A DNA stretch of 64,000 nucleotides, taken from sequence record NC_031047.1; one strand, written 5' to 3'. Source of the stretch: Escherichia phage HY03. Below are positions 52,135-57,655 of this stretch, one piece after another. The notes beneath the pieces are model-generated. The model did no database searches, was not told the origin of the DNA, and was given only the letters and a program-made list of their open reading frames with translations. Made by a program: the position numbers and the translations under genes. Position 1 is the first letter of the stretch. Every line of letters starts with the position of its first letter.

Positions 52135-53506
<1,372 letters not shown>

Positions 53507-54522
53507 TAATTGAGGCCTGAGTATAAGGTGACTTATACTTGTAATCTATCTAAACGGGGAACCTCTCTAGTAGACAATCCCGTGCTAAATTGTAGGACTG
53601 CCCTTTAATAAATACTTCTATATTTAAAGAGGTATTTATGAAAAGCGGAATTTATCAGATTAAAAATACTTTAAACAATAAAGTATATGTAGGAAGTGCT
53701 AAAGATTTTGAAAAGAGATGGAAGAGGCATTTTAAAGATTTAGAAAAAGGATGCCATTCTTCTATAAAGCTTCAGAGGTCTTTTAACAAACATGGTAATG
53801 TGTTTGAATGTTCTATTTTGGAAGAAATTCCATATGAGAAAGATTTGATTATTGAACGAGAAAATTTTTGGATTAAAGAGCTTAATTCTAAAATTAATGG
53901 ATACAATATTGCTGACGCAACGTTTGGTGATACATGTTCTACGCATCCATTAAAAGAAGAAATTATTAAGAAACGTTCTGAAACTGTTAAAGCTAAGATG
54001 CTTAAACTTGGACCTGATGGTCGGAAAGCTCTTTACAGTAAACCCGGAAGTAAAAACGGGCGTTGGAATCCAGAAACCCATAAGTTTTGTAAGTGCGGTG
54101 TTCGCATACAAACTTCTGCTTATACTTGTAGTAAATGCAGAAATCGTTCAGGTGAAAATAATTCATTCTTTAATCATAAGCATTCAGACATAACTAAATC
54201 TAAAATATCAGAAAAGATGAAAGGTAAAAAGCCTAGTAATATTAAAAAGATTTCATGTGATGGGGTTATTTTTGATTGTGCAGCAGATGCAGCTAGACAT
54301 TTTAAAATTTCGTCTGGATTAGTTACTTATCGTGTAAAATCTGATAAATGGAATTGGTTCTACATAAATGCCTAACGACTATCCCTTTGGGGAGTAGGGT
54401 CAAGTGACTCGAAACGATAGACAACTTGCTTTAACAAGTTGGAGATATAGTCTGATCTGCATGGTGACATGCAGCTGGATATAATTCCGGGGTAAGATTA
54501 ACGACCTTATCTGAACATAATG
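53507..54522 (+). mobile_element. Group I intron in td (1016 nt) carrying a GIY-YIG endonuclease ORF
   Basis: Exon 1 ends with U; intron begins TAATTGAGGCCTGAG and ends ...ATAATG; exons rejoin to DVFLG|LPFNIASYA. Confidence 0.85.
53638..54375 (+). CDS. Intron-encoded GIY-YIG homing endonuclease (I-TevI-like)
   Basis: 245 aa; MKSGIYQIKNTLNNKVYVGSAKDFEKRWKRHF; zinc finger and DNA-binding C-terminus; start codon abuts a hairpin. Confidence 0.85.
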   Translation: MKSGIYQIKNTLNNKVYVGSAKDFEKRWKRHFKDLEKGCHSSIKLQRSFNKHGNVFECSILEEIPYEKDLIIERENFWIKELNSKINGYNIADATFGDTCSTHPLKEEIIKKRSETVKAKMLKLGPDGRKALYSKPGSKNGRWNPETHKFCKCGVRIQTSAYTCSKCRNRSGENNSFFNHKHSDITKSKISEKMKGKKPSNIKKISCDGVIFDCAADAARHFKISSGLVTYRVKSDKWNWFYINA

Positions 54523-54834
54523 CTTCCATTCAACATTGCATCATATGCTGCGTTAGTTCATATTGTAGCTAAGATGTGTAATCTTATTCCGGGAGATTTG
54601 ATATTTTCCGGTGGTAATACTCATATCTATATGAATCACGTAGAACAATGTAAAGAAATTTTACGTCGTGAACCTATGGATTTATGCGAATTGCAATTAA
54701 AATTTCCAGATGAATTTGATGAATGGGGCACAGAATCGCAGGTATTTTGGTTGAGTCAATTCGCAAAGCCGCATAATTTTGTTCTTAACAACTATGTATC
54801 TCACCCGCCAATTAAAGGAAAGATGGCGGTATAA
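54523..54834 (+). CDS. td: Thymidylate synthase exon 2
   Basis: LPFNIASYAALVHIVAKMCNL...; exon 1 plus exon 2 give 286 aa. Confidence 0.85.
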   Translation, partial: LPFNIASYAALVHIVAKMCNLIPGDLIFSGGNTHIYMNHVEQCKEILRREPMDLCELQLKFPDEFDEWGTESQVFWLSQFAKPHNFVLNNYVSHPPIKGKMAV

Positions 54835-54845
54835 TTTTAATTTAA

Positions 54846-55121
54846 TTGCGAGGATATATGATTTTACGATTTAAAGATACTTCTGGTGTAGTTCTTTTTA
54901 CACTTCCTAATCCAAGTGAGTTAGAAGTTCCAGGACCAAATCAGCCTATTATCATTTATGGCAAAAAATATTATACTCATAAAATGACTCGTGAGTATTT
55001 TGATAATAAAATTTCCACAGTTAAAACTTCTTCTGATTGTTATTATGATATTACTGTTTTAACGGAAGAACAATATGAACACCTACAACCGCGCGGGCCG
55101 TCTATGCCGGGTAGTGAATAA
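54846..55121 (+). CDS. Hypothetical protein
   Basis: ORF track. Confidence 0.4.
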
Positions 55122-55400
55122 ATACAAATCCGACTTTGATGTTAATATTCACCGTGGTACATTTAGAGCCTTTACGTCGGTAAAGATGCTGGCAGCCGGG
55201 AGGCTGCCATTGAATTATTCAAAAAAGATTTTATACGTCGAATTAAATCCGGAGAAATAACTAAAGAACATTTAGAGCCTTTACGTGGAATGAGGCTAGG
55301 ATGCACATGTAAACCAAAGCCGTGTCATGGTGATATAATAGCTCATATAGTTAACCGATTGTTTAAAGACGATTTTCAAGTTGAGGACTTATGCAATTAA
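55075..55400 (+). pseudogene. DUF4326-like gene apparently disrupted by a frameshift (N-terminal part in one frame, remainder in another)
   Basis: [17 protein letters not shown] in the ORF-track frame; ...VGKDAGSREAAIELF...LGCTCKPKPCHGDII in a second frame with no start codon; family recalled from memory. Confidence 0.35.
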
Positions 55401-57655
55401 TTAATGTTATCAAAAGTAGTGGTGTTTCTCAGAGCTTTGACCCGCAAAAAATTATTAAAGTTTTATCTTGGGCAGCTGAAGGAACATCAGTAGATCCTTA
55501 TGAATTATATGAAAATATTAAATCTTATCTCCGTGATGGAATGACAACTGATGATATTCAGACTATTGTCATTAAGGCTGCTGCAAATTCTATTTCAGTT
55601 GAAGAGCCTGATTACCAATATGTAGCCGCTCGCTGTTTAATGTTTGCTCTTCGTAAGCATGTTTATGGGCAGTATGAACCACGTTCATTTATTGACCATA
55701 TTTCTTATTGTGTAAATGCAGGTAAATATGACCCTGAATTGTTGTCAAAATATTCTGCAGAAGAAATTACATTTTTAGAATCAAAAATTAAGCACGAGCG
55801 GGATATGGAATTTACTTATTCCGGGGCGATGCAATTAAAAGAAAAATATCTAGTTAAAGATAAAACCACTGGTCAAATTTATGAAACTCCGCAGTTTGCA
55901 TTTATGACTATTGGAATGGCACTGCATCAAGATGAACCTGTTGATAGATTAAAACATGTTATCCGTTTTTATGAAGCAGTATCTACTCGACAGATTTCAT
56001 TGCCAACTCCTATTATGGCTGGTTGTCGTACTCCTACTCGACAGTTCAGTTCATGCGTTGTTATTGAGGCAGGAGATTCGCTGAAGTCTATCAATAAGGC
56101 TTCTGCTTCAATTGTTGAATATATCTCCAAACGAGCTGGAATCGGCATTAACGTTGGTATGATTCGTGCCGAAGGTTCTAAGATTGGCATGGGTGAAGTA
56201 CGCCATACTGGTGTTATTCCTTTTTGGAAACATTTTCAGACTGCTGTTAAATCATGCTCACAGGGTGGAATTCGTGGCGGCGCTGCTACTGCTTATTATC
56301 CTATTTGGCATTTGGAAGTTGAAAATCTTCTCGTTTTGAAAAATAACAAAGGCGTAGAAGAAAACCGCATCCGTCATATGGATTATAGTGTTCAGCTGAA
56401 TGATTTGATGATGGAACGATTCGGAAAGAATGATTATATTACTTTGTTCAGTCCGCATGAAATGGGTGGCGAGCTTTATTATTCTTATTTTAAAGACCAA
56501 GACCGTTTCCGTGAATTATACGAAGCAGCAGAAAAAGACCCTAATATTCGTAAAAAGCGTATTAAAGCCCGTGAACTATTTGAATTGCTCATGACTGAAC
56601 GTTCAGGGACAGCAAGGATTTATGTACAGTTCATTGATAATACGAATAACTATACTCCGTTTATTCGTGAAAAGGCACCTATTCGTCAGAGTAACTTGTG
56701 CTGTGAAATTGCTATTCCAACAAATGATGTGAATAGCCCTGATGCTGAAATTGGATTGTGTACTCTCTCTGCATTCGTACTGGATAATTTTGACTGGCAA
56801 GACCAAGATAAAATTAATGAATTGGCAGAAGTCCAAGTTCGTGCTCTTGATAATCTTTTGGATTACCAAGGATATCCAGTTCCTGAAGCAGAAAAAGCTA
56901 AAAAGCGTCGTAACCTCGGTGTAGGTGTTACCAACTATGCAGCTTGGCTGGCAAGTAACTTTGCTTCTTATGAAGATGCTAACGATTTAACACATGAACT
57001 ATTTGAGAGATTACAGTATGGACTCATTAAAGCATCCATTAAGCTCGCCAAAGAAAAAGGACCTTGCGAATATTATTCAGACACTCGTTGGTCTCGAGGC
57101 GAATTACCTATCGACTGGTACAATAAAAAGATTGACCAAATCGCAGCTCCAAAATACGTTTGTGACTGGTCGGCGCTGCGGGAAGACCTTAAGCTCTTTG
57201 GCATCCGTAATAGCACATTATCAGCACTTATGCCATGTGAGTCATCTTCCCAAGTTTCTAACAGTACAAATGGTATCGAGCCTCCACGTGGACCAGTCTC
57301 TGTTAAAGAATCAAAAGAGGGCTCCTTTAATCAAGTCGTGCCCAATATTGAGCATAACATAGACCTTTACGACTATACATGGAAATTAGCTAAGAAAGGT
57401 AATAAACCTTATCTTACGCAGGTAGCTATTATGCTGAAATGGGTATGTCAATCAGCTTCAGCGAATACATATTATGACCCGCAGATTTTTCCAAAAGGAA
57501 AGGTTCCAATGTCTGTAATGATTGATGACCTTTTGTATTTTTGGTATTTTGGCGGAAAAAATTTCTATTATCATAATACTCGTGATGGTTCCGGTACTGA
57601 TGATTACGAAATAGAAACTCCAAAAGCCGATGATTGCGCAGCGTGTAAATTGTAA
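55391..57655 (+). CDS. nrdA: Ribonucleotide reductase large subunit NrdA
   Basis: 754 aa; ATP-cone N-terminus; class I RNR motifs. Confidence 0.9.
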   Translation: MQLINVIKSSGVSQSFDPQKIIKVLSWAAEGTSVDPYELYENIKSYLRDGMTTDDIQTIVIKAAANSISVEEPDYQYVAARCLMFALRKHVYGQYEPRSFIDHISYCVNAGKYDPELLSKYSAEEITFLESKIKHERDMEFTYSGAMQLKEKYLVKDKTTGQIYETPQFAFMTIGMALHQDEPVDRLKHVIRFYEAVSTRQISLPTPIMAGCRTPTRQFSSCVVIEAGDSLKSINKASASIVEYISKRAGIGINVGMIRAEGSKIGMGEVRHTGVIPFWKHFQTAVKSCSQGGIRGGAATAYYPIWHLEVENLLVLKNNKGVEENRIRHMDYSVQLNDLMMERFGKNDYITLFSPHEMGGELYYSYFKDQDRFRELYEAAEKDPNIRKKRIKARELFELLMTERSGTARIYVQFIDNTNNYTPFIREKAPIRQSNLCCEIAIPTNDVNSPDAEIGLCTLSAFVLDNFDWQDQDKINELAEVQVRALDNLLDYQGYPVPEAEKAKKRRNLGVGVTNYAAWLASNFASYEDANDLTHELFERLQYGLIKASIKLAKEKGPCEYYSDTRWSRGELPIDWYNKKIDQIAAPKYVCDWSALREDLKLFGIRNSTLSALMPCESSSQVSNSTNGIEPPRGPVSVKESKEGSFNQVVPNIEHNIDLYDYTWKLAKKGNKPYLTQVAIMLKWVCQSASANTYYDPQIFPKGKVPMSVMIDDLLYFWYFGGKNFYYHNTRDGSGTDDYEIETPKADDCAACKL

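Follow-up and report, generated by a model that had tools for sequence, protein, structure and literature searches.

How a gene that is one intact open reading frame (ORF) in bacteriophage T4 came to be divided between two reading frames, with a 19-bp exact direct repeat inside it, is the question raised by a short interval upstream of nrdA in Escherichia phage HY03. The whole stretch of DNA analyzed (64 kb, hereafter the window) is a Tequatrovirus (T4-type) genome, in which td exon 1, an intron with I-TevI, td exon 2, nrdA.2, a broken nrdA.1, and nrdA follow one another. The 245-aa I-TevI ORF (53638-54375) lies inside the td intron (53510-54519) and is followed by td exon 2 (54520-54834), by nrdA.2 (54858-55121, plus strand), which encodes an intact, full-length DUF5496 protein (Pfam PF17600, E 2.5e-57) and matches T4 nrdA.2 in position, and, beyond the interval in question, by an intact nrdA (55391-57655, plus strand). 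The nrdA.2–nrdA.1–nrdA synteny of Tequatrovirus is kept in the window. The original prediction had placed the broken gene between td and nrdA, which is correct for the region, but td is not its immediate neighbor, as nrdA.2 intervenes. A 581-nt query around the gene matched 512 phage records, the best being Salmonella phage SG1 (99.5%) and Escherichia phage JEP6 (99.3%).

The td group I intron is putatively assigned by homology with the T4 annotation; an Rfam scan of 52900-55500 returned nothing at gathering score, this intron included, a miss that is assumed to be due to the interrupting I-TevI ORF. The intron is absent from phages RB32 and PD112 and present, with I-TevI, in all five phages that carry the altered nrdA.1 allele described below. 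Within td exon 2, the block at 54720-54831 is strongly mosaic (an alignment of 10 phages has 55 variable columns per 100 nt there), includes a 3-nt indel at 54763-54765, and shows haplotype-sharing patterns unlike those of the adjacent blocks; lying near the I-TevI homing site, it was possibly shaped by co-conversion.

The remnants of nrdA.1

In T4, nrdA.1 (NP_049846) is a single intact ORF of 108 aa at the same position as the window's gene, and its product aligns with the Pfam DUF4326 profile (PF14216) over positions 1-81 of 82 (E 5.5e-22, 78.7 bits). The two copies share their place between nrdA.2 and nrdA, the 47-nt overlap of the nrdA.1 start by the 3' end of nrdA.2, the ATGCAATTAA overlap of the nrdA.1 stop with the nrdA start, and more than 95% nucleotide identity outside a short patch, whereas the window copy differs by an 8-nt to 7-nt replacement at 55165-55171, the absence of WGN, a broken frame, and a premature TAG. 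DUF4326 is predicted to be a rhodanese-phosphatase-superfamily enzyme acting on ADP-ribose-derivative phosphates in NAD+/ADPr conflict systems (Iyer, Burroughs, Aravind; PMC7824862, PMC9503650), and the T4 orthologue shares with these proteins the full-length domain and the conserved Cys/His motif CxCxPxxCHGD. By full-text search, just two papers name the gene itself. An AF2 model of an intact orthologue (pLDDT 86, pTM 0.79) had no confident structural neighbor when compared with the PDB by Foldseek (E > 2), and the weak hits obtained are compatible with an ADPr-related role and prove nothing.

In the window, the N-terminal part of the gene is found in a 61-aa ORF with an ATG start (55075-55260, plus strand), comprising 30 native residues and then 31 out-of-frame codons that read RAFTSVKMLAAGRLPLNYSKKILYVELNPEK. 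This ORF is 100% identical to HY03_0257 (YP_009284229.1), annotated as a hypothetical protein, and an exact-protein look-up of it on contigs returned no match. The rest of the domain lies in the frame of 55077, which runs through WYI, a stop codon, SLYVGKDAGSREAAIELF, CTCKPKPCHGDII, and LCN to a stop ending at 55400; in full, WYI and its stop are followed by SLYVGKDAGSREAAIELFKKDFIRRIKSGEITKEHLEPLRGMRLGCTCKPKPCHGDIIAHIVNRLFKDDFQVEDLCN and a terminal stop that overlaps the nrdA start. The C-terminal remnant (55167-55400, plus strand, 77 codons and a stop) is in the native frame, keeps CTCKPKPCHGD, and carries RLGCTCKPKPCHGD, which agrees with the motif RLGCxCxPxxCHGD. A profile search of both frames, as the original prediction had proposed, matched this downstream frame to PF14216 positions 27-81 (E 7.3e-15, 55.8 bits, above the gathering cut-off of 25) and the upstream ORF, through its residues 2-30 only, to the N-terminal part of PHROG 464. 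The two-frame DUF4326 gene that had been described, with its N-terminus in the ORF at 55075-55260 and the rest in a startless frame, is borne out.

No ATG, GTG or TTG occurs in the native frame after the TAG and before 55290, where the first native-frame ATG opens a 36-aa ORF (55290-55400, plus strand, beginning MRLGCTCKPKPCHGD) that has kept the CxCxPxxCHGD motif and nothing more, and is probably not a functional unit. Native residues 31-72 are encoded by no initiated ORF, and no single uninterrupted ORF covers the DUF4326 domain, which is split between the frames of 55075 and 55077. Because the domain is divided in this way, a TAG stands at 55164-55166 and no start codon precedes 55290, the nrdA.1 locus would appear to be a pseudogene of the DUF4326 family, with presumable loss of function, rather than a functional member; the pseudogene had been offered earlier as one alternative, and it is the reading adopted here, with the domain split and the C-terminal remnant devoid of a start codon. 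The expression of nrdA should be untouched by the lesion, and no polar effect would be expected, because nrdA has its own ribosome-binding site, GAGGA at 55383-55387.

The N-terminal extension of nrdA.1 (55078-55094) is hypervariable, reads MPNYHRAGRL in some phages, and shares its DNA with the 3' end of nrdA.2. In RB32, the nrdA.1 start is annotated at a downstream GTG, and many homologues begin just before CRVVNKY. On these grounds, the true nrdA.1 start codon is uncertain. The 3' two-thirds of nrdA.1 together with the nrdA start (55172-55419) show very low nucleotide diversity: in an alignment of 10 phages, only 2, 1, and 4 columns vary in the three 100-nt bins over 55220-55519. The corresponding figures per 100 nt are 8-17 for nrdA.2 and the nrdA.1 5' end, 4-11 for nrdA, and as many as 55 for td exon 2. 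A recent sweep or constraint at the nucleotide level, such as an RNA or regulatory signal for nrdA, could account for this low diversity. Almost no further decay is seen in the 3' 250 nt of the broken gene, frameshifted alleles included, so that either the event is recent or the stretch is conserved for another reason.

Origin of the converted tract

The window was aligned at the nucleotide level with RB32, T4, and NBG2, in which nrdA.1 is uninterrupted and the upstream site unconverted, and with four phages that share the altered allele, SG1, pSe_SNUABM_01, ELT1, and JEP6; a comparison of this kind had been suggested for the same interval at the outset. At the recipient site, the three intact phages have ACATTTTGGGG(A/G)AATTACGT, i.e. 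the arms ACATTT and TTACGT around a core that is TGGGGAAA in T4 and NBG2 (encoding T F W G N Y V) and TGGGGGAA in RB32. Between the same arms, the core is AGAGCCT in the window, SG1, pSe_SNUABM_01, and ELT1, and AGAGTCT in JEP6, which carries one later substitution inside the patch. The downstream site has the arms around AGAGCCT, encoding H L E P L R, in every phage examined. The converted tract, AGAGCCT at 55165-55171, replaces the ancestral 8-nt TGGGG(A/G)AA with a net loss of 1 nt and destroys the W-G-N codons; five substitutions and a 1-nt deletion fall within 8 nt, each of them toward the downstream sequence, and yield 19/19 identity between the two sites. As a result, the WGN motif is lost, the frame is shifted by -1, and a new TAG is made on the plus strand in the native (C-terminal) frame at 55164-55166, the translation being WYI-stop-SLYVGK.

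There are exactly two copies of the 19-mer ACATTTAGAGCCTTTACGT in the 64-kb window, 109 nt apart as first reported, at 55159-55177 (the recipient copy, consisting of the two arms and the converted core) and at 55268-55286 (the donor copy, encoding HLEPLR in the native frame). No third copy was found in the window with up to 2 mismatches allowed, and 100 shuffles gave 0 matches, 0 being expected by chance. The donor site is identical in all 10 phages aligned, with one substitution adjoining it in the window. T4, RB32, and NBG2 have both arms at each of the two sites, and this ancestral repeat is imperfect (6+8+6 upstream, a 7-nt core downstream), having become a perfect 19-mer in the window.

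The polarity of the change was taken from an alignment of 22 homologues (45-94% identity) from T4-like phages of Escherichia, Serratia, Pectobacterium, Acinetobacter, Providencia, Yersinia, and Aeromonas and from metagenomic sequences, in which R27, G28, G32, and N33 are invariant and T29 and W31 at least 90% conserved. WGN being conserved across these homologues, the T4 sequence represents the ancestral state, from which the patch has taken away a core motif. Where the family has RG(T)xWGN, the window reads RGTFRAF. The loss of a WGNPF segment had been predicted; the loss itself stands, whereas the exact motif does not, since it is FWGNY in the T4 group and WGNP(F/Y) in the wider family. Likewise, of the 'local duplication or conversion' put forward to explain the repeat, the comparison of intact and patched relatives upholds conversion and rejects duplication, because no DNA was added.

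It is highly probable, judging from the alignments, that nrdA.1 was inactivated by one templated complex mutation, copied from a nearby direct-repeat donor through a double template switch. The substrate would have been the ancestral imperfect repeat, with the arms ACATTT and TTACGT around TGGGGAAA upstream and around AGAGCCT 109 nt downstream. Most likely, the growing 3' end, having copied the upstream ACATTT, re-paired with the downstream copy; AGAGCCT and TTACGT would then have been copied at the downstream site, and a switch back through the second arm would have returned synthesis to the upstream site, turning 8 nt into 7 nt and leaving a perfect 19-bp repeat and a pseudogene. Had the second switch failed, a 109-nt deletion would have been left. 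The signs by which a templated mutation is recognized are present at this locus, namely clustered changes that all convert toward a nearby repeat, pre-existing identical flanking arms, and an unchanged donor with polarity given by outgroups. It is very improbable that the patch was instead brought in from a divergent phage allele by recombination, with the gene's own downstream site playing no part as donor. An import would suit the high mosaicism of the region and the occurrence of the patch on at least two flanking haplotypes; however, AGAGCCT is found at the recipient site of an intact gene in 0 of about 520 related records, WGN is kept at the recipient position in all 22 family members, and the source would need to match the local donor at 7/7 positions and in both arms, and to break the frame.

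Templated mutation was defined experimentally in T4, in the quasi-palindrome and strand-switch models of Ripley, and templated mutagenesis from imperfect direct or inverted repeats was reportedly documented in T4 by Schultz and Drake in 2008. The T4 laboratory mutations and the window case share clustered changes, short identical arms, an unchanged donor, and the same organism group. The laboratory mutants were selected in rII or other reporter genes, whereas the allele described here segregates naturally in wild isolates and affects a non-reporter accessory gene, and its mechanism is deduced rather than observed.

Preference for a replicative template switch over other forms of short-patch conversion is likewise a matter of deduction from the footprint, as the same one would be expected from a misaligned heteroduplex that was repaired, or from short-patch gene conversion in the course of recombination-dependent replication. 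The arms speak against UvsX-type homologous pairing and favor primer relocation, because they are only 6 nt long; such relocation may have taken place during recombination-dependent or break-repair synthesis. The td intron with I-TevI lies about 0.65 kb upstream of the patch in each of the five carriers, and a link between the patch and homing-associated repair is a speculation. The perfect 19-bp repeat should now serve as a substrate for a 109-bp deletion; no such deletion between the two 19-mers was present in 488 matching records.

Frameshifting and split-gene alternatives

A -1 frameshift near 55165 had been raised as the other alternative, beside a pseudogene. It is excluded by the TAG at 55164-55166, which closes the target frame, and no slippery site is found there. 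Where the two frames overlap, the sole canonical -1 site is the heptamer A_AAA_AAG at 55221-55227 (plus strand), which fits the pattern X_XXY_YYZ in phase with the ORF starting at 55075 and stands in the slippery phase of this 61-aa ORF because of the 1-nt loss alone. When a -1 shift was simulated at this site, the native frame was regained and a 108-aa product obtained, and in the ENA contig P0077 (1346 nt), G3 and A7 together leave an ORF of full length in which the same 19 codons are translated in the alternative frame. Programmed -1 frameshifting, or transcriptional slippage on the A-run, could in this way restore a full-length functional protein of 108 aa, but there is only a slim chance that it does: the product would still be devoid of WGN, with 21 unrelated residues in place of FWGNYVGKDAGSREAAIELF, and the two-frame arrangement, shared by about 1% of relatives (6/524 records), is not conserved.

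The dnaX frameshift site offers a direct comparison, having the identical heptamer in the correct phase between overlapping frames. An SD-like element is spaced by 10-14 nt from the heptamer in dnaX. In the window, the SD-like GGGAGG ends 17 nt upstream of the heptamer, outside this spacing, and no hairpin starts 5-8 nt 3' of it, so that neither a well-spaced 5' SD nor a stimulatory 3' structure was found at the heptamer; in contrast to dnaX, conservation and restoration of the domain are also missing. The phase of the heptamer is best taken as a by-product of the frameshift and not as a recoding signal, although some low-level slippage may occur. The sole strong hairpin of the region, a perfect one of 8 bp, UGGCAGCC-GGGA-GGCUGCCA, lies upstream of the heptamer at 55190-55209, within the nrdA.1 coding sequence and flanked by the two repeat copies; it is the dominant element of the fold predicted for the region (z = -2.3).

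A split gene, whose N- and C-terminal pieces are translated separately and act together, has very little in its favor as a probability. Both pieces are open, and the 36-aa ORF from the ATG at 55290 contains CxCxPxxCHGD; against this, WGN is in neither piece, the absence of a native-frame start codon over 55167-55290 leaves native residues 31-72 uncovered, and about 95% of relatives keep a single ORF. A two-frame arrangement conserved among related phages, with both ORFs initiated, had been named in the original prediction as a finding that would refute it, and most relatives have one intact ORF instead.

Carriers of the patch and other broken alleles

A 66-nt query across the patch identified the patch allele in 6 of 524 related records, which amount to four phages in addition to the window, namely SG1 and pSe_SNUABM_01 (one GenBank and one RefSeq record each), ELT1, and JEP6. 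The carriers are independent isolates from Salmonella and E. coli, obtained in different laboratories. The patch allele is inherited and is not a sequencing error, because the same allele is present in independent phages and the change is no homopolymer error. Other apparent frameshifts in nrdA.1 do sit in homopolymers and could be errors, as in PD112 with its G5 and A5 runs, yet the chance of an artefact of sequencing or assembly in a single genome is negligible for the patch, a complex replacement of 8 nt by 7 nt with no homopolymer length error, seen in independently sequenced phages, namely SG1, pSe_SNUABM_01, and ELT1, which have it in identical form, and JEP6, in which one further base is substituted. 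No patch allele was found in IMG/VR, JGI metagenomes or GTDB genomes, where the intact allele itself gave just 5 IMG/VR hits, so that this search is uninformative on frequency.

On the left flank (up to 55087), the window, SG1, and JEP6 have a haplotype unlike that of pSe_SNUABM_01 and ELT1, and on the right flank (from 55489) ELT1 groups with SG1 and pSe_SNUABM_01 does not. These flanking haplotypes show recombination on both sides of the patch and fit either a single or a multiple origin; a single origin followed by crossovers on either side is the simplest reading in such mosaic phages.

Several other lesions split or shift the gene. An A6 to A7 change, in the A6 run within the heptamer at 55221-55227, splits nrdA.1 in Lutter, CHD2BS1, G3G6, G3G7, PM105, PM123, PM133, PM136, and Ec_MI-02, the A7 allele having been verified in Lutter (L010, 351-422). 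A G4 to G3 change in G2540-3 (L009) gives another 61-aa ORF, PD112 (L008) has the G5 and A5 runs already mentioned, ECO07P4 has a shifted nrdA.1 C-terminus, and metagenomic clusters hold further variants. Frameshift-variant NrdA.1 proteins include P0003, P0028, P0045, and P0073-P0078, of which P0077 is a 'compensated' G3 and A7 combination. Sequencing errors may account for some of the homopolymer cases. By a tally of alleles in the phage collection, roughly 3-5% of records have a broken nrdA.1, through at least three independent lesions, and about 95-99% of relatives have an intact single ORF. This distribution, mostly intact and repeatedly broken, is that of an accessory gene whose usefulness is conditional. 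The patch allele together with the independent A-run and G-run frameshifts indicates that nrdA.1, and with it DUF4326, would not be needed for plaques to form on common hosts belonging to Escherichia and Salmonella, a dispensability that fits a conditional, possibly counter-defense role rather than one in nucleotide metabolism, despite the name and position of the gene.

It is also conceivable, although unlikely, that the pair of repeat sites in nrdA.1 is a recurrent hotspot of templated mutation, that loss of DUF4326 is favored on some hosts, and that nrdA.1 is a contingency-like counter-defense gene. Repeated origin of the patch would then explain the differing haplotypes of SG1, JEP6, and the window on the one hand and of pSe_SNUABM_01 and ELT1 on the other; nrdA.1 would be switched off by three slippage or templating routes (patch, G-run, and A-run), and the in-phase A_AAA_AAG could permit low-level read-through.

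Whether it arose once or repeatedly, the locus is of a kind already known, a pseudogene of a known family produced by a known mutational mechanism, while no earlier description appears to exist of this particular allele or of how it arose. It would provide a clean natural footprint of a donor-templated complex mutation in the phage group where laboratory mutants defined the mechanism, and suggests that templated events play a part in the loss of genes from wild T4-like phages; in phylogenies, such events can pass for several independent substitutions. For annotation, the 61-aa 'hypothetical protein' of HY03 is to be read as an nrdA.1 remnant and is due a pseudogene flag, and the same applies to the unannotated gap in SG1, JEP6, pSe_SNUABM_01, and ELT1, where nrdA.1 remnants lie.
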